A DNA stretch of 14,742 nt from an uncultured archaeon (GTDB lineage: Archaea; Asgardarchaeota; Lokiarchaeia; Sigyniarchaeales; SOKP01). A model generated the notes under the pieces. It saw only the letters and a program-made list of their open reading frames with translations, had not been told where the DNA came from and ran no database searches. Below are positions 7,349 to 14,742 of the stretch, piece after piece; position 1 is the stretch's first letter, and each line of letters begins with the position of its first letter. A program made the translations under genes and the position numbers. The stretch is taken from the NCBI GenBank assembly GCA_964493715.1, contig CAZBPC010000085.1, forward strand, positions 1 to 14,742, in the 5' to 3' direction.

Positions 7349-8776
7349 CTAACGTGATTGCAAGTATTCAGAGTAATCACATAATAAGGACAAGCTTCTG
7401 GCTGCTTCACTCAGGGAGAAAAAGTATAAAATTCTTTGCTTATGCAATATTTTTTGAACATTAGAAAACTTCTTGGCACTATCTAAAGAATCTGAAATAC
7501 TTGGTAAACTAAACGCAAAAGGTTTCCCACTTTTTTTTAACGTTTTGATCATTTTGGTAAACACGTAACTATATAAAAAGTGAGGCCATAATGGGGCTAG
7601 TAAAATGTCGATAAGAGGATCTTTAGCAACTACTTCAATACATTTAATGAAGATATCTACCACAAATCCAAGAGCACCAAGATCAATTGGATTCCTTATA
7701 TTAACATTTTCTTTTGGTAAGATTTCGGAGATCTCTTTTTGTGATCCTAATGTCAGTTCTGGTACTTTCAATCCGTTTACCGCAAGTAAATCCGTTGCAT
7801 TTACGGAAGAACCACCTCCAGGGGTGATTATTCCCACATTTCTTCCCTTTGGTAATAATTGTGGTACTAACAATTCAAATGTTTTAATAGCATTCCAAAA
7901 TTCTTCTTCATCATGTACGATTACAGCTCCGGTTTGCTTAGCAAGCATATTCCATAATTTCATTTCGCTTGCCATGGCACCCGTGTGAGAAAATGCTGCA
8001 CGCGAGCCATCTTTAGTGTAACCCCCTTTCCAAATTATTACTGGTTTACTTTTTGTGGTTTCTTTCAATTCTAAATAAAAATCATTCCCGTTTCCAGATC
8101 CAAATGACTCGAGATAGGCTGCAATGAGCTTTGTTTTATTATCGCTGTGGTAAAATCGTAAAAAATCAATAGCATTTAAATCAATTTGGTTTCCAAAACT
8201 TACTCCATATCGATATCTAAAATCACGCTTAATTCCAATATCTAATAGTTGAGTAAGATGCCCTCCAGATTGAGACATAAAGGATATTCCTCCAGGAATC
8301 CCTTTATGGGATGAAAACGAGAAAGCCATCCCAGTCTCTCCGTTAAATGGCCCTAAACAATTTGGACCTATAACATGTGTAGTGGAGCCCTTGATGATCT
8401 CTTTTATTTGATTTTCTAGTATAATTCCCTCTTTATCTCCAGTTTCAGAGAAGCCCGATGAAAAAATAATTACCCAGGGTATTTTTTTCTCTACACATTC
8501 AATTAGCACGCTTGGGATGATCTTGGTCTTAACAGAGATGTAAGCTGTATCAATAGGGAATGGAATGTCTAAAACGGAAGCATAACATTTCCAATCCATT
8601 AGTTTTTCATATCGTGGGTTGACTGGATAAAACTTGGATGTCCATTGAGACTCCTTAAATGCTGTTAGATATAACATCGATCCGAAAGCACTCTTCTCCG
8701 AAGCCCCAATGAAAGCAATATGTTCGGGATGAAAAAGACTCTGATCGATTTTGATCAAACGATGTTGATTTTCCAT
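7349..8776 (-). CDS. acdA: Acyl-CoA synthetase (ADP/NDP-forming) alpha subunit, AcdA-like (CoA-binding + ligase domains, no ATP-grasp)
   Basis: Motifs FHPEHIAFIGAS, YPVNP, SSGFSE, IGPNCLG, SQSGG, SFGNQID, YLES, the phospho-His motif SHTGAMA and NPIDLG. Confidence 0.85.
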   Translation of the reverse strand: MENQHRLIKIDQSLFHPEHIAFIGASEKSAFGSMLYLTAFKESQWTSKFYPVNPRYEKLMDWKCYASVLDIPFPIDTAYISVKTKIIPSVLIECVEKKIPWVIIFSSGFSETGDKEGIILENQIKEIIKGSTTHVIGPNCLGPFNGETGMAFSFSSHKGIPGGISFMSQSGGHLTQLLDIGIKRDFRYRYGVSFGNQIDLNAIDFLRFYHSDNKTKLIAAYLESFGSGNGNDFYLELKETTKSKPVIIWKGGYTKDGSRAAFSHTGAMASEMKLWNMLAKQTGAVIVHDEEEFWNAIKTFELLVPQLLPKGRNVGIITPGGGSSVNATDLLAVNGLKVPELTLGSQKEISEILPKENVNIRNPIDLGALGFVVDIFIKCIEVVAKDPLIDILLAPLWPHFLYSYVFTKMIKTLKKSGKPFAFSLPSISDSLDSAKKFSNVQKILHKQRILYFFSLSEAARSLSLLCDYSEYLQSR

Positions 8777-8835
8777 TATTTGATAAAATAATTAAAATGT
8801 TATATTTGTTATGAAATATGGTTCTAAACTTACAT

Positions 8836-8847
8836 CTTTATATAAAG
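8836..8847. promoter_or_regulatory. Palindromic TATA element CTTTATATAAAG
   Basis: Perfect 12-bp palindrome that reads TTTATATA on both strands, about 60 nt upstream of the acdA start. Confidence 0.45.
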
Positions 8848-9110
8848 TAACCGAAGGCAAAAATATGAAATTATATTTGGTAGGGAGTTTTTATAGTTCT
8901 CATTTAATTTATTCTTAGAATGGAAAAAAAAATCTGTAGAACAATTTGGATTTCGCCCTCTTTAGCTTGTTTTATATAATATCCTATGGATTTTAATTTC
9001 CTTTTCTCTTTTTAATTCTGAGTCATGAGTAAAGTTTATATGGAAAATAGGTCAAATTTTATAGGATGATTTATTGAGATAATATATAACTCAAACTGGA
9101 TTAAGGGATA

Positions 9111-12100
9111 ATGGGATTAGGTATTGATTTAAATTTATTAGATTCGTTCTCAAAAGGGACTAATCTCGAAAAAGTGCAAGACATATTTAATTCAATAATG
9201 TTGAATATCGAAGAGAATTTGGGTAGTAAACCATATGAAACTAATGTTAGGATTATCATTTTAGATACAGAAAAAATAGAATTAAATTTAGAAGATCCTT
9301 TTGAATTTGGTGTAAAACGTTCTCTTGATGATTATTTAAAAATTCAAATCTCATTCAAGTGTATAAAATTTATTCCTCAAATTTTGTTAAGAGAATGCTA
9401 TAAATTGTTCATTATTCCTAAAAATCGAAAGAGTATTCAAGTTCAATTTATAGTCTACATGATAATAGAATCGGAACTCGAAACTTTGAATAACATGATA
9501 GATTGGAAGAAAACTATCAGAGGATATGAGAATTTTCAGCAGTATTTCACAGATAATGGTGATATGTTGGTAAAATTCTTAAAATTAGAAGATCCGGATA
9601 CGAAAGAAAACATCATCCCGATTCTTTTTCAGCTGATTAACTCTCTCGAGCCAGATTTTCTCAATGATACTATTTTTGAGATCATTGTAATTGAATTCAT
9701 GAATCGGATCAGGCTATATCTTCAAGATGATGATATTTTAGAAACCATAAAAGTGCTTAAAGAAATATTTTTTTCTGTTAAAAACTACCGAGCTTTACTT
9801 GAGTATCAAGATTACTTCAAGCAATTTAAAGAAAGTGGTTCAATAACAACTAACTTAAGTCTCCGCAAATTTACATCTAACGTGAGATGGCTAAATAAAC
9901 ATTCATTTTGTGCCCCTGATTACCATTTGGATTGGTTTACGATTAACATGGCGATCTATATCATCTATATTCGGTTCCATCCCTGTTGCAGGTGGAGAAA
10001 TGTTAAAATGTTTATGAAGAACTTGCCATTTTCCTTATGGCCGCAACTTACTGCAATTGGTTATGCTCAGGAATTTTTTGGGTATATCATCATTCCTAAT
10101 TCATACATAAAGGATCTGAAACAATCTCTTGAGTTTTTCAAAGGTACTGGTTTCTTTCAAGAAATTAAAATTTATGAACCCGAGACATTGCACTACTTCC
10201 TAAATCTTAATTATTACGGAAATCTTACTAAAATGGGCAAGTTCTTGCATGCTAAGCGAAAAGGATATCGCAAGGACTTCGAGCTCATTTTCAAGACAAA
10301 ATACCAGAAAAAAGTAGTTCTGAAGGAACTTTCTTTACTTGATTTTATAATATTAGATAGAGTAAGAAATTTATCTTTTACAGGATTTGGATTTGAAAGA
10401 AGAGAATCTACTTTGAAAGATTTAAAATCAGATTTATTAAAAGAGATCTCCTATCAGAAAAATGTCATAGTTCAATTAAGAAACGTGATTGATCGGTTTT
10501 CTAAATCACCAGATCTAAAAAATATGTTTTTAGATTTACTTCAAAACAATAAAAGATATAGCTTCTTTACATTCACCGAATATATGAAACAAATTGTTGA
10601 TTCTATTAGATTATCCATGGAAATTTTAGAAAAAAATTCATCTTTAACTAATCCTATTTCTTTTAATGAGTACATTAATAAGAAAGGAATCTCAATGGCA
10701 CTCCATAAAAATTTTAATCTTAATAATCAACGAGTACGAGATTTACTGGTAAATAAACTCATTCCACTTTATTTCCGCAATAGAAATCTCTTTAATGAAG
10801 AATATCAAGCATTTTTACTGTTTTTTGAATATTTATTTATTTGCAGTGAACTAAAAATATATGATTTAAATTCATTGAAAAACATTCTTGAGAATCCAGA
10901 TGCTTCAACAAGGATTTATTCTGCAAAAGAAGAAAAATTAGATTTGATATATAAGGAGTCCCAATTGAGAAATATAACAAGTACGGAAGTGGAGAATCGG
11001 CTTGAAGATTTTTCAACTTCAGTTCCCCCAATTATATCTCCAAAAATGCTGGATTCAATGATAACTGCTTTATATTCTACAATTTCATTCATTCTTCTGG
11101 CCAAAAATACAAGCAGAGTATTAAGTTTCCTAGAAAAATTAGCACACACTGTTCCACATTATACTTATTATGAATTGAAAGACATCAAGGATGATCAAAA
11201 TTTTATTTTTTGTCGATTTGGAGTTCAAGGAATAGATACTAAAGGAAAATATGAATTCTTTTCAATCGTACATAATCATTTAAAAGAGGATTTAATAATT
11301 CTTGCTCGTTTCATCCACCAAGGTTTCTATTCTACCTTTTCCCGGAGGAATTATTATGATTTCATCGATGGTACGTTCTTTTATACTCCCAATCTTTATT
11401 CAGAATTCAAAAAATCGATTGCAGATCAATTTGGGAAAAATTTGACTCCTATCTATATTCAGGCACCTATCAATCCTGATAATTTTTGGATTAGTAAAAT
11501 TCACTTAGAATCCTTTGTAGATGCATTAAACCAAAGTAGAATTATGGAACCTCAACATTTTGACTTGAATCAATTAGATCAATTGTTAAATTTTAATAGA
11601 AGATTAGAATATTATTTGCTGAATTCAAAAGCATATCAAGATTTAAGAGAAAAAGAATTCTTCCAATTTATAAATTCTATTCGAATCAAACCAATCCTTC
11701 CAGAATTTGGTTTACAGAAATATTACTTGTATTTTCAAGCAATAGATTTCAATGCAATCATACCTGAATTACTTCTTATAAATACTTTCACGTCTGTAAG
11801 ATTTAATTCACCTAGATTTGATACATATTCCTTTTTGGTTAAATATATATTTCCATATAATACTCCAAATAAAGCATATTTAAACTGGCAATTATTCTCC
11901 AAGAAAAACTTCAATGAATATTGTTTATTCACCATCAAAAAAACTCATAAAATTTTTGATTTCTCCAAAAACATCACGCGGGATGGATATAGAATTGATT
12001 ATAATCAATTCATTCAATATGTTCAAAAAATTTTATTTGATCCGTCATATAATCCCTATCATCCTAACTCCAGAACTTTGAATTTTGAAAAAACTAATTT

Positions 12101-12716
12101 TGATTCATATATATCACCTACAAATCCTAAATTTAAGGATCTATTGAAAATATTCAAGAGAAAATCTAATATCAAGAGTTTCTGGGCTACTAAAAAAGGA
12201 ACACAATTAGAACAGGTTATTGTCAGGCTTCTAAAAAATAAATTAATCTATCCATCACTGACATTTAAGAATCTAAAGCTAAGAGAATGTCTATACTTCA
12301 TCATACCTGACCTTAATGAGGAGCAAGTTAAAATTCTTATAAAATTATTCCAGTTTTTTAATGTTGTATCCATTAATGAGATATCAGGTGAATTTTTTGT
12401 TAATTCTTTTGATGAAATGATCACATTCAGCAATGGGTTGTTTATAAAATTAAAATTACCTGAAATGGAAATAAGCCCCTATGTGGATACGTGGTTTGAA
12501 GTATTTGATCATCTAAATATCAAACATTATATTTTTTTCTCCGAGTTATTCAAGACAAAGAAATGGTTACGTGAGATTTTCAAGGATTTTGATTTAAAAC
12601 ATAACTATCATCCCTTACTAAACCTACAATGGAATGATATTGACAAAATTTACAAAAATCATAAATTATTTGGCGAAAATTTCACACCACAATATCCGAA
12701 ATTAAATCCAGAATAG
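9111..12716 (+). CDS. 1201-aa protein: degenerate zincin-like N-terminus plus about four tandem Lrp/AsnC-like (wHTH + RAM) modules; putative regulator
   Basis: The ORF itself is clear; the domain call is by eye. Repeated segments resemble the Lrp wing-to-RAM junction: VRWLNKHSFCAPDYHLDWFTINMAIYIIYIRF, VENRLEDFSTSVPPIISP...SFILLA, IRIKPILPEFGLQKYYLYF and VRLLKNKLIYPSLTFKNLKLRECLYFIIP...EISGEF. No TM helix or signal peptide. Confidence 0.6.
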   Translation: MGLGIDLNLLDSFSKGTNLEKVQDIFNSIMLNIEENLGSKPYETNVRIIILDTEKIELNLEDPFEFGVKRSLDDYLKIQISFKCIKFIPQILLRECYKLFIIPKNRKSIQVQFIVYMIIESELETLNNMIDWKKTIRGYENFQQYFTDNGDMLVKFLKLEDPDTKENIIPILFQLINSLEPDFLNDTIFEIIVIEFMNRIRLYLQDDDILETIKVLKEIFFSVKNYRALLEYQDYFKQFKESGSITTNLSLRKFTSNVRWLNKHSFCAPDYHLDWFTINMAIYIIYIRFHPCCRWRNVKMFMKNLPFSLWPQLTAIGYAQEFFGYIIIPNSYIKDLKQSLEFFKGTGFFQEIKIYEPETLHYFLNLNYYGNLTKMGKFLHAKRKGYRKDFELIFKTKYQKKVVLKELSLLDFIILDRVRNLSFTGFGFERRESTLKDLKSDLLKEISYQKNVIVQLRNVIDRFSKSPDLKNMFLDLLQNNKRYSFFTFTEYMKQIVDSIRLSMEILEKNSSLTNPISFNEYINKKGISMALHKNFNLNNQRVRDLLVNKLIPLYFRNRNLFNEEYQAFLLFFEYLFICSELKIYDLNSLKNILENPDASTRIYSAKEEKLDLIYKESQLRNITSTEVENRLEDFSTSVPPIISPKMLDSMITALYSTISFILLAKNTSRVLSFLEKLAHTVPHYTYYELKDIKDDQNFIFCRFGVQGIDTKGKYEFFSIVHNHLKEDLIILARFIHQGFYSTFSRRNYYDFIDGTFFYTPNLYSEFKKSIADQFGKNLTPIYIQAPINPDNFWISKIHLESFVDALNQSRIMEPQHFDLNQLDQLLNFNRRLEYYLLNSKAYQDLREKEFFQFINSIRIKPILPEFGLQKYYLYFQAIDFNAIIPELLLINTFTSVRFNSPRFDTYSFLVKYIFPYNTPNKAYLNWQLFSKKNFNEYCLFTIKKTHKIFDFSKNITRDGYRIDYNQFIQYVQKILFDPSYNPYHPNSRTLNFEKTNFDSYISPTNPKFKDLLKIFKRKSNIKSFWATKKGTQLEQVIVRLLKNKLIYPSLTFKNLKLRECLYFIIPDLNEEQVKILIKLFQFFNVVSINEISGEFFVNSFDEMITFSNGLFIKLKLPEMEISPYVDTWFEVFDHLNIKHYIFFSELFKTKKWLREIFKDFDLKHNYHPLLNLQWNDIDKIYKNHKLFGENFTPQYPKLNPE

Positions 12717-12870
12717 TAAAAAGAACATAAGAATAGATACGGGTTTCTTCAAATAAAATTTTTTATTAATAGTCATACGATATAAAAAAAAGATTTGTAT
12801 ATACTTCTTTCTTTTTCTCTACTTCTAAAACATAAAAAATTAGATAGTAGGAGTTTAATTTATTATTTCT

Positions 12871-12890
12871 AAAAAATCGAAGTTTATATA
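12871..12890 (+). promoter_or_regulatory. BRE/TATA promoter of the small peptide gene
   Basis: A-rich AAAAAATCGAAG immediately followed by TTTATATA (12883-12890), about 52 nt before ATG 12942. Confidence 0.65.
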
Positions 12891-12925
12891 CAAGGTTCTA
12901 GAGAGATCAATACACCAAATAAGGT

Positions 12926-12932
12926 GTGAGGT
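12926..12932 (+). promoter_or_regulatory. Shine-Dalgarno GTGAGGT
   Basis: GAGGT ends 9 nt upstream of ATG 12942; this is the clearest RBS in the window. Confidence 0.7.
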
Positions 12933-12941
12933 AATATAGAA

Positions 12942-13064
12942 ATGGATAAAAATAAAATTTTTATTGCGATTTTGTCAGCTTTAAGTGTGATTTCTCTTGG
13001 AATCGCTTTAAGTTCAACTTCATACGCCGTAGGCTCCTTTTTTCCAGGCGGTGGAGTTCCTTAA
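12942..13064 (+). CDS. 40-aa secreted pre-peptide MDKNKIFIAILSALSVISLGIALSSTSYA|VGSFFPGGGVP
   Basis: Below the ORF-track length cut-off and translated by hand (ATG 12942, TAA 13062-13064). It has a basic n-region (KNK), a hydrophobic h-region, a polar c-region ending S-Y-A, and an 11-aa tail. It has its own TATA, RBS and terminator and is GC-richer than its flanks. Confidence 0.8.
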   Translation: MDKNKIFIAILSALSVISLGIALSSTSYAVGSFFPGGGVP

Positions 13065-13077
13065 TTAATCCACGTTG

Positions 13078-13117
13078 AGGAGTATGGATACATACTTTTA
13101 TTTTCTTTTTTTTTTTT
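13078..13117 (+). terminator. Hairpin plus long oligo-T terminator after the peptide gene
   Basis: AGTATG-gata-CATACT (13081-13096, extendable by G-U pairs) followed by TTTATTTTCTTTTTTTTTTTT. Confidence 0.75.
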
Positions 13118-13196
13118 GAACAAGAACTTCTTACTCGATATTATGGGATTAGATTAATTGAAATTCAATACTTCTATATTGAAATAATTACTATCA

Positions 13197-13436
13197 ATGA
13201 TGAACTCAAAAATGACAGAAAGAAAAATTTATCTAAATAATAATGTAAAAACGTTGATTAGAATTGCTAAAACTTATAATATAGATGGGAAAATGACTTT
13301 ATCAGATTTTAAAAAATATGCTGAAGAAGAAGAGATAATTGAAAAGAAATTTTATGCCCATTTTAATCAAGCTTGCTACTTAGGATACCTTAAAAGAGCT
13401 GACAATGAAGTGATCTTCATAAGAGATTACGATTAA
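13197..13436 (+). CDS. Small stand-alone winged-helix-like protein (79 aa or slightly shorter)
   Basis: Helix, GKMTLSDFKKYAEEEEI, helix EKKFYAHFNQACYLGYL, then hairpin KRADNEVIFI fits a wHTH topology. Several in-frame ATGs make the start uncertain. Confidence 0.6.
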   Translation: MMNSKMTERKIYLNNNVKTLIRIAKTYNIDGKMTLSDFKKYAEEEEIIEKKFYAHFNQACYLGYLKRADNEVIFIRDYD

Positions 13437-13592
13437 CTTAAAAAAAGAATAGAATAAAATAACATCCTATCAAAATCCAATTTTAACTTCCTTCCTATTT
13501 GTGAAATAGAATAAGAAAAATGCTATTAACTTCAAAAAAACAAGAATTAAAATTGGGATTGGATTTTCTCTACTAAGTTAGAAGATATGATC

Positions 13593-14330
13593 TCATCTTC
13601 TCTCAGAGACCGAATTTCTTGCAGAAATAGAGTTCTCAAACATAACGTTAAAGATTTCATTCGCTCTTTGTTCGATTAGCTCTCTTCTTTGAGCCTGACC
13701 TTTCTCAGACTTTTGGTATCTCTCCATCGCGATTTTACGCCATTTCTTTTCCCAGGATGGGAAACCAGTTTTAACATAGCGTTCCCGATTTGGAAAATCT
13801 TGGCAAATCCAATTAAACATAACAAAATATCTCTGAAAACCCGCCTCTGTCGTAAGCTTGCTCGATTTTATTCCTAATTTTCTTAGATGTTGAATAAATC
13901 TACCTTCCACGGCGTCTTGAAGGACTCCTTCTACAACTGCTGGCTCGTAGTATATCCCATTCTCTTCAAAATATTCTCTTACAAGATCAAAGCAATTACC
14001 ACGACATAGAAGTATCCTATCACTGTCGTTATGATTAAGAATTCTAAGAGCTTTTATAACTACTTTTAGAATGTGCTTCTTCGGTTCAAGAATGTGTTTG
14101 TTGTTATCCTCGTCGTCTTTATAGAGGTCAACAGGAACCGATTGAAATATAATTTTTTCCGTGCTCGTATCACGGAGGCCAATAAAGGCATTTCCGAGAA
14201 GATCACCAGTCCCAGCGTCATCAATTTCTATTGTTCTTCCCTTCCACTCGCTGGGGTTAATAGTGGATTGGCACGACTCTCGCTCTTCATTATTTGAGAC
14301 TCGGTCGTCTTTTTTTGTTTCTGTCTTCAT
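13593..14330 (-). CDS. Uncharacterised RNase H-fold-like protein
   Basis: N-terminal strand IEIDDAGTGDLLGNAFIG resembles the RNase HII/HIII GxDEAGRG/DESGKGD motif. Later motifs (ILLCRGNCFD, VEGVLQDAVE) do not match RNase HII. Confidence 0.6.
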   Translation of the reverse strand: MKTETKKDDRVSNNEERESCQSTINPSEWKGRTIEIDDAGTGDLLGNAFIGLRDTSTEKIIFQSVPVDLYKDDEDNNKHILEPKKHILKVVIKALRILNHNDSDRILLCRGNCFDLVREYFEENGIYYEPAVVEGVLQDAVEGRFIQHLRKLGIKSSKLTTEAGFQRYFVMFNWICQDFPNRERYVKTGFPSWEKKWRKIAMERYQKSEKGQAQRRELIEQRANEIFNVMFENSISARNSVSERR

Positions 14331-14340
14331 TTTTTGTTTC

Positions 14341-14366
14341 TATGTTTTTAAATGTTTAAAAACATA
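14341..14366. promoter_or_regulatory. 26-bp inverted repeat TATGTTTTTAAA-tg-TTTAAAAACATA; candidate operator over a TATA box
   Basis: Two perfect 12-bp arms with a 2-nt spacer, 11-36 nt upstream of the start at 14330. It contains TTTTTAAA on the - strand at TATA distance. Confidence 0.6.
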
Positions 14367-14422
14367 AATACATTTCGATTTACTTTAGCTCAAGTAATAT
14401 AGAAAAACACTTCAATCTGAAT

Positions 14423-14742
14423 TCATGGAAAATGATCTGTTTTTTCGTTGATTTTTCTTAATGTAAACTTAAATTTCACGTTTATCTTTTTATAGATTAT
14501 ATATAAAATTTGAAGGATAATGATGGTGGATAAATTAAATAGAAAATTATTTTTCCAAAATCCAATGAATGGGATTTTAAATTGAACTATTCCTAGAATA
14601 GCTTCTTGAGGAATGTATATGATATTAGATTTATTGTATTCAAATAATAAATAGCCAGGACTTGATAATAATGTTCTATACATGCCATCAAATTCATATC
14701 CACTATTACCTCCTTTCGTCATAAAATACCAGCTTCCATTTA
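14423..14742 (-). CDS. C-terminal part of a Sec11/S26B-type signal peptidase I-like protein (5' end beyond window edge)
   Basis: The frame stays open past the annotated ATG to the window end: NGSWYFMTKGGNSGYEFDG...IYIPQEAILGIVQFKIPFIGF followed by a TM helix. This matches the TKGDNN box and the 'iiGkv...IP.iG' tail of Sec11/SipW peptidases. The catalytic Ser/His would lie outside the window. Confidence 0.7.
   Translation of the reverse strand, partial: NGSWYFMTKGGNSGYEFDGMYRTLLSSPGYLLFEYNKSNIIYIPQEAILGIVQFKIPFIGFWKNNFLFNLSTIIILQILYIIYKKINVKFKFTLRKINEKTDHFP

Follow-up and report, generated by a model that had tools for sequence, protein, structure and literature searches.

Peptide signalling systems of the RRNPP type are laid out as two adjacent genes, one encoding a pro-peptide and the other an intracellular receptor, according to a published account (PMC10075063). 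The contig studied here, CAZBPC010000085.1 of an uncultured archaeon (14,742 nt, called the window from here on), contains a comparable arrangement, in which a gene for a 1201-aa protein, the large protein, is followed by a short open reading frame (ORF) for a pre-peptide. The window is contig C85 of genome G000 (3.68 Mb, 28% G+C), the genomes compared are metagenome bins, and the relatives of the window proteins carry the source labels Promethearchaeota or Lokiarchaeota. An earlier interpretation of the same DNA made from its letters (the sequence-only reading) had proposed a 1201-aa ORF and then, on the same strand, a 40-aa signal-peptide ORF with a tail of 11 residues, and our ORF calls and inspection confirm both. 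The large-protein gene and the exported-peptide gene are best explained as a conserved, recurrent two-gene module, of which the window contains the copy that we call type A.

In the RRNPP(A) systems Rap-Phr, PlcR-PapR, NprR-NprX, AimR-AimP and Rgg-SHP, a small pro-peptide gene is adjacent to the gene of an intracellular protein, as in the window. Phr, PapR, NprX and AimP carry Sec-type leaders, and the Rgg-SHP pairs are divergent. The archaeal pairs, known here from sequence alone, have in common with these systems the placing of the peptide gene (downstream on the same strand or upstream and divergent), the Sec-type leader, the clade-specific variants of the peptide and the presence of an Opp-type binding protein in the genome. 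On the other hand, RRNPP receptors have about 300-400 aa, compared with about 1200 aa here, the host is an archaeon, and the peptide tails are rich in glycine and end in proline. Pfam at E up to 1 returned nothing in 31 members of the large family, TPR included, and since no TPR domain was found we place the module outside the RRNPP(A) family. The likeness to RRNPP drawn in the sequence-only reading thus extends to the adjacent pro-peptide gene and stops at the TPR receptor. Concerning archaea, density-dependent behaviour has been described in Haloferax volcanii, with no peptide-receptor gene pair named in the beginning of the abstract (PMC12240190), and our literature search, in the portions of the sources available to it, found no genetically defined peptide-signalling pair in archaea.

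Peptide genes beside the large-protein gene

The product of the 40-aa ORF begins with basic residues, followed by a hydrophobic core of 18 residues (2.45 for a 19-residue window), and the proposed cut, with small residues at -3/-1, leaves the tail of 11 residues. Signal-peptide features were judged by inspection, and small ORFs were collected with our own heuristics. Among 14 type A relatives aligned over 39-40 residues, the Ala at -1 and the end Pro-Gly-Gly-Gly-x-Pro are invariant, position -3 is always Ser, Thr or Ala, and the first residues of the tail vary. With its basic n-region, hydrophobic h-region and small residues at the proposed site, the type A pre-peptide reads as a Sec signal with a cleavage site for signal peptidase I. 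In the invariant C-terminal motif, the codons for Pro and Gly vary among copies with the residue unchanged, and the ratio of nonsynonymous to synonymous divergence (pN/pS) of the type A peptide gene is 0.61. Inside the best-conserved part of the ORF there is also a hairpin-like element of 8 pairs (12987-13006), where synonymous divergence is low (pS 0.20 vs 0.39 in the tail), which may reflect a constraint at the RNA level.

Separate promotion of the peptide gene, as supposed in the sequence-only reading, is plausible, with TATA-like and Shine-Dalgarno-like elements that are conserved in relocated copies. Four copies, relocated ones and that of G344 among them, have the TATA-like block unchanged. 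Downstream of the gene, a hairpin of 9 bp (13078-13099) is followed by a T-run; its folding energy is -8.7 kcal/mol (z -1.93), and 10 of 200 shuffles fold equally well. Since relocated copies retain 60-140 nt of the upstream and about 95 nt of the downstream sequence, the peptide gene appears to be an autonomous unit of about 270-350 bp. A bacterial-type promoter scan was set aside, being not applicable to archaea. Global protein searches for such peptides returned 6 and 2 clusters only, probably because ORFs this short are rarely called.

The type A profile was searched in 119 genomes of the window's family. It was found at full length in 9 places from 6 genomes, and 4 partial matches, restricted to the N-terminal part of the profile, came from G348, G168, G030 and G008, one each. 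Four of the 9 full-length genes (G000, G298, G295 and G344) lie on the same strand as the large gene and 110-245 nt downstream of it. The same layout was present in 6 of 8 metagenome contigs, and one more contig does not reach far enough on that side to show it. Synteny with the window covers the entire block in G298 and G295, and taken alone it says little about linkage. In G344, the large protein is only 38.5% identical to that of the window, compared with 44-72% for the backbone genes, and the peptide gene is retained.

Only the seven genomes in which the large gene reaches 752 bits or more against the window protein yielded type A peptides; the best score among the others is 652 bits. This phyletic co-occurrence was rejected as independent evidence, since EF-2 and RpoB rank the genomes differently and the events of co-occurrence cannot be counted. 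By EF-2 identity (G000:C1:99085-101256), G344, G099 and G348 are among the most distant genomes in the genus (73-74%), while RpoB and six syntenic genes put G344 beside the window's group; either the markers conflict or the bins are mixed.

An early scan, in which three terminal glycines were required and only the best-scoring large gene per genome was considered, returned none at 27 distant loci. The reading of chance synteny that was held at that stage was later rejected, overturned by divergent small ORFs of two other types. The first was seen upstream of G000:C63, a paralog of the large gene (type C), and it prompted a look at the second large genes of G298, G295 and G344. These genes (type B; G298:C111, G295:C59 and G344:C47) have one to three divergent small ORFs upstream, at 115-121 nt, with three in tandem at the G298 locus. 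Each type B product starts with basic residues, continues with a hydrophobic core and a small-x-small site, and finishes with a short tail that contains an aromatic residue and closes with Gly-Gly-Pro or Gly-Gly-Val. Likewise, the divergent ORF of G000:C63 encodes a signal peptide and a Gly-rich tail. Considering both types, the small ORFs are located 115-320 nt upstream of the large gene and divergent from it, their Gly-rich tails typically end in Gly-Gly-(x)-Pro, and small residues at -3/-1 were again seen by inspection. Immediately past their type B peptide genes, both G298:C111 (L100 1046-1119) and G295:C59 (L105 1222-1295) carry a gene for tRNA-Ile(GAT).

A profile built from six type B and C ORFs was then used for a genome-wide search of the same 119 genomes, with a cut-off of E<1e-4. 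It returned 15 places, the 6 of the training set and 9 new ones. Seven of the new places are at most 750 nt from an intact large-family gene: two contigs of G250, one place each in G190, G339, G299 and G345, and a second ORF downstream in G295:C59. Another is separated by 563 nt from what remains of a large gene (47 residues), and the last is an orphan. By our estimate, the one to three large-family genes of a genome and the 1 kb to either side of them account for well under 1% of 4 Mb. Weaker matches included three adjacent copies (G339:C32, G250:C34 and G339:C19) and three orphans (G262:C2, G184:C276 and G220:C226).

At the seven type C loci, the first ~400 residues of the large protein are 54-84% identical to those of G000:C63. 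Only 2 of the 7 loci have the same genes past the peptide gene, so the pair is retained while its context changes. The intergenic DNA has two conserved blocks, one at the start of each gene, with a variable stretch between them, which is the pattern expected from back-to-back promoters, and a Shine-Dalgarno-like run also precedes the peptide starts. The last five codons of the type C peptides are the more constrained ones, with a pN/pS of 0.27 vs 0.62 in the hydrophobic core. The large protein of G000:C63 (L106/L048) is, in its first 416 residues, 84% identical to that of G250:C34 (L107), which belongs to another genus, a value far above that of the window's own orthologs within the genus.

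The large protein and its clades

For the 1201-aa protein no match was found in Pfam, NCBIfam, PDB (E up to 1) or PADLOC. Its most hydrophobic 19-residue window scores only 1.59, which makes a soluble protein plausible. A word-indexed search returned 38 relatives, all unnamed or annotated as 'hypothetical', and a profile of its last 1150 residues gave 319 matches in 1.84 billion proteins, the 150 listed all being proteins of about 1200 aa or fragments. The family seems narrowly distributed: in a sample of 299 genomes of the phylum, 61 of the 66 from the window's own family (f1) have it, with 1-3 copies each, and none of the 232 from 29 other families does.

The sequence-only reading had taken this protein for a dead zincin followed by tandem Lrp/RAM units, for which Pfam, profile-profile comparison and motif checks gave no support. 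Different from zincin metallopeptidases, it contains no HExxH or HxxEH motif and matches no peptidase family, nor was any enzyme domain or catalytic motif found by Pfam, NCBIfam, PDB and motif checks. The likeness to Lrp/AsnC (feast/famine) proteins, which combine a winged helix-turn-helix (wHTH) with a RAM domain, comes from two sources. By eye, the C-terminal region resembles a wHTH-to-beta-alpha-beta module; and in a language-model search (Atlas), family members of 85% and 31% identity share the same first match, a 717-aa archaeal cluster carrying AsnC-type HTH, HTH_24 and MarR domains. However, scans of the whole genome with PF13404 (AsnC-type HTH) and PF01037 (RAM/AsnC_trans_reg) found 25 and 10 places, respectively, none of them in the large genes, which were missed even at E 10. 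The comparison of the large-protein profile with eight Lrp proteins of the same genome by hhalign gave an E of 0.53, and a search for internal repeats detected none. We treat a possible relationship with AsnC-type/MarR wHTH regulators as a weak lead.

A tree built from the N-terminal 360 residues places the peptide-linked large genes in three distinct clades, which share about 30% identity with each other and are interspersed with clades without such ORFs. Each of the three has its own tail type. The support is 1.0 for clade A with G099 and G348, 1.0 for clade C and 0.62 for clade B. Among the loci of other clades, an MFS-like neighbour of the large gene was found in 15 of 27 (PF07690 at 5.3e-14) and an acyl-CoA-ligase-like neighbour in 11 of 27. 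At the one locus read in detail, in G328, the MFS gene is divergent and upstream of the large gene.

Neighbouring genes and conserved backbone

The features of the window are collected in the table below. We consider three of them, the putative tandem signal peptidase gene and the ORFs of 79 and 245 aa, as probable local neighbours, outside the module; the module of G344 lacks all three.

Table. Position of the large-protein gene, the peptide gene and their neighbours in the window.
Feature	Position	Strand	Basis or remark
Large "type A" protein, 1201 aa, soluble orphan	9111..12716	+	ORF call; family of ~1200 aa, one Promethearchaeota family only
TATA-like box (octamer) of the peptide gene	12883..12890	+	~52 nt ahead of the start codon; read from sequence
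Shine-Dalgarno-like run of the peptide gene	12928..12932	+	9 nt ahead of the ATG; read from sequence
Pre-peptide, 40 aa, Sec-type signal peptide and 11-residue tail	12942..13064	+	ORF call, inspection
Terminator-like hairpin and T-run of the peptide gene	13078..13120	+	Folding; kept in relocated copies
79-aa ORF	13197..13436	+	Neighbour in closest relatives only; module membership unsupported
245-aa ORF	13593..14330	-	Neighbour only; no Pfam/NCBIfam match; not in G344 module
C-terminal fragment (105 aa) of a putative tandem two-domain signal peptidase I	14423..14740	-	Gene cut by contig end; G298 ortholog
ADP-forming acyl-CoA ligase alpha-like gene	7349..8776	-	Pfam and NCBIfam; in the conserved backbone beside the module-bearing variable island

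The small wHTH gene of the sequence-only reading exists as an ORF of 79 aa, but its identity as a wHTH protein is backed by no family match: Pfam and NCBIfam returned none, and PADLOC only 20.9 bits. It lies beside the peptide gene in G298, in G295 and in 7 of 8 metagenome contigs.

A signal-peptidase-like gene about 1.4 kb away had also been proposed, and we found it as a fragment, 1359 nt from the peptide stop. The fragment alone has no Pfam or NCBIfam match, the catalytic part being past the contig end. Its ortholog in G298 has 416 aa with two signal-peptidase-I domains (L043 4776-6026) and passes TIGR02228 with 88.9 bits, over a cut-off of 51.85, in 2 stretches; a homolog of 407 aa in G348, also a tandem, matches PF10502 and PF00717. 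Judging by the G298 ortholog, the neighbour resembles the archaeal or endoplasmic reticulum (ER)-type signal peptidase I (Sec11/S26B) and could cut the pre-peptide. On the other hand, it differs from that enzyme in being a tandem duplication with an altered Gly-Asp-Asn box, which reads Gly-Gly-Asn in the second domain of the window copy. A canonical archaeal signal peptidase I is encoded elsewhere in the genome (G000:C6). The tandem peptidase accompanies the peptide gene in the closest relatives and is near a weak peptide relative in G348, but it is not retained with the module in G344 or at any of the type B and C loci examined. A link between it and the module, which the sequence-only reading itself called its weakest part, is weak at best and finds no support in these loci.

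The window from 7349 to 14742, compared with L043, L087 and L095-L098, corresponds to a variable island between acyl-CoA-ligase-like and Cdh-like genes, in a backbone otherwise conserved in the genus. The island carries a large-family gene in either orientation, and its cargo differs between genomes: an MFS gene (seen in G328), the peptide gene with NYN, or the peptide gene with the 79-aa, 245-aa, peptidase, SWIM and NYN genes. The large gene found in the island of G328, G338, G332 and G330 belongs to another clade and is oppositely oriented. Of these four islands only that of G328 was read, and there the MFS gene adjoins the large gene and no peptide gene is present.

Possible roles of the gene pair

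We suggest, with a confidence somewhat short of even, that the window holds the type A copy of the module, in which the large cytoplasmic protein would act as a peptide-responsive regulator and the small gene would encode its exported pre-peptide. The module pairs a cytoplasmic protein of about 1200 aa with a gene, probably transcribed separately, for a pre-peptide of 37-41 aa, which is placed either downstream on the same strand or upstream and divergent with back-to-back promoters. Sec would export the pre-peptide, and signal peptidase I would cleave it just past the small-x-small site. The peptide released would have 8-11 residues, an aromatic one close to the beginning, and would end in Gly-Gly-(x)-Pro. 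The large protein would be the intracellular partner, most likely a regulator of the peptide gene, and it would respond to the peptide after uptake, resulting in an autoinduction loop similar to that of RRNPP systems and made of unrelated parts. Peptide uptake is possible in principle, since G000 encodes one SBP_bac_5 (Opp-type peptide-binding) protein.

Several observations weigh against a peptide-responsive regulator. The expectation of the sequence-only reading that the peptide genes would keep to the large gene holds for the four linked type A genes described above and fails for the other 5 of the 9. Three of these five copies represent one paralog locus beside two membrane proteins (G000:C34 / G298:C229 / G295:C128), one lies between an MFS transporter and a CPBP/Rce1-type protease (G244:C71), and one was found at G099:C54. 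On a 10-kb metagenome contig, the peptide gene has no large gene beside it and is placed between thioredoxin-like and aldehyde-oxidoreductase-like genes (named by eye), and in G099 and G348 the large gene and the peptide relative are on different contigs. Orphan type C-like peptide genes are present at G343:C5, G262:C2, G184:C276 and G220:C226. The locus G000:C63, being 84% identical to one of another genus, may be a mis-binned contig or a recent transfer. Regarding the protein itself, Pfam (31 members) and PDB revealed no recognisable DNA-binding or peptide-binding domain, and the Atlas scores of the shared cluster, 0.80 and 0.78, are at a level reached by a third of shuffled proteins. In the comparison that the sequence-only reading called for, the cassette that it proposed is upheld by adjacency and by tails that follow the clades in three of them, but not at 29 loci of other large-family clades (L011-L035 and L095-L098, flanks of ~1.5 kb, heuristic search), where no such ORF was found. 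Finally, the pairings are not independent events, and each clade may count as one.

G244 was rejected as a clean case of unlinking because the contig with its large gene is gapped and chimeric. In G244:C212 (L045 1-1510), the large gene enters a run of N with a duplicated flank, and past residue ~1058 it continues as unrelated iron-sulphur-protein-like sequence with no stop, probably the product of an assembly chimera.

The small product could instead be a single-pass membrane microprotein that remains uncleaved, with a short tail outside, being the target or the membrane anchor of the large protein and sending no diffusible signal. Its hydrophobic core, with 18-20 residues, is long enough to span a membrane and is as conserved as the start of the tail (pN/pS 0.62-0.66 vs 0.58-0.73), and the MFS neighbours in other clades (15 of 27) suggest a regulator with a divergent membrane or export target. 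Nevertheless, we regard this as unlikely, since all 14 type A sequences retain small residues at -3/-1, the type B and C sequences inspected do so as well, and constraint is strongest at the very end of the tail.

It is rather improbable, in our view, that the two genes form a maturation or immunity pair, where the large protein would modify, chaperone or protect against an exported peptide similar to a bacteriocin or to a ribosomally synthesized and post-translationally modified peptide (RiPP), this peptide being a product and not a sensed signal. The pairing and the clade-specific tails would fit an enzyme with its substrate or a toxin with its immunity protein equally well, and the G244 copy has the CPBP/Rce1-type protease and the MFS transporter as neighbours. 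In G348, the weak peptide relative is the first of three same-strand genes that include a YcaO gene (PF02624, 1.2e-37), although this relative matches only the first 25 positions of the profile (E 2.5e-4). No YcaO is encoded anywhere in G000, which separates the window from YcaO-dependent RiPP clusters, and neither an enzyme domain nor a catalytic motif was found in the large protein by the checks described above. A Sec signal peptide as the sole leader is, moreover, unusual for RiPPs. The trio of G348:C111 (L089 3137-6607) is composed of the peptide relative, a 99-aa ORF and YcaO, is convergent with a tandem signal peptidase I, and looks like a small RiPP-like cluster.

The absence of any functional link, with independent small genes being neighbours by descent inside variable islands, is the reading we find most improbable: type A adjacency does occur within a long conserved synteny block, and the peptide gene, equipped with a promoter and a terminator of its own, is seen in at least five further contexts, several orphans also being present, but the pairing recurs in three clades of ~30% identity, in two layouts and with changing far-side neighbours, and 8 of the 9 new strong matches of an unbiased genome-wide search were beside a large-family gene or its remnant, where the coverage expected by our estimate is so small.

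A broader form of the peptide-responsive regulator is that this Asgard family runs peptide pheromone circuits, with several 'pherotypes' per genome, in which giant wHTH receptors would bind their own re-imported 8-11-mers and control the back-to-back promoters. We consider it doubtful at present. If true, archaea would have in these circuits their first genetically defined system of peptide signalling, one convergent with RRNPP quorum sensing. The pair described here offers a concrete and conserved combination of genes with clade-specific peptides, in the lineage closest to eukaryotes, by which peptide signalling in archaea becomes testable. Even if the signalling role is wrong, a family of 1200-aa proteins without a recognisable domain, found in nearly all sampled genomes of the window's family and provided with a dedicated exported micro-peptide would represent an undescribed system.

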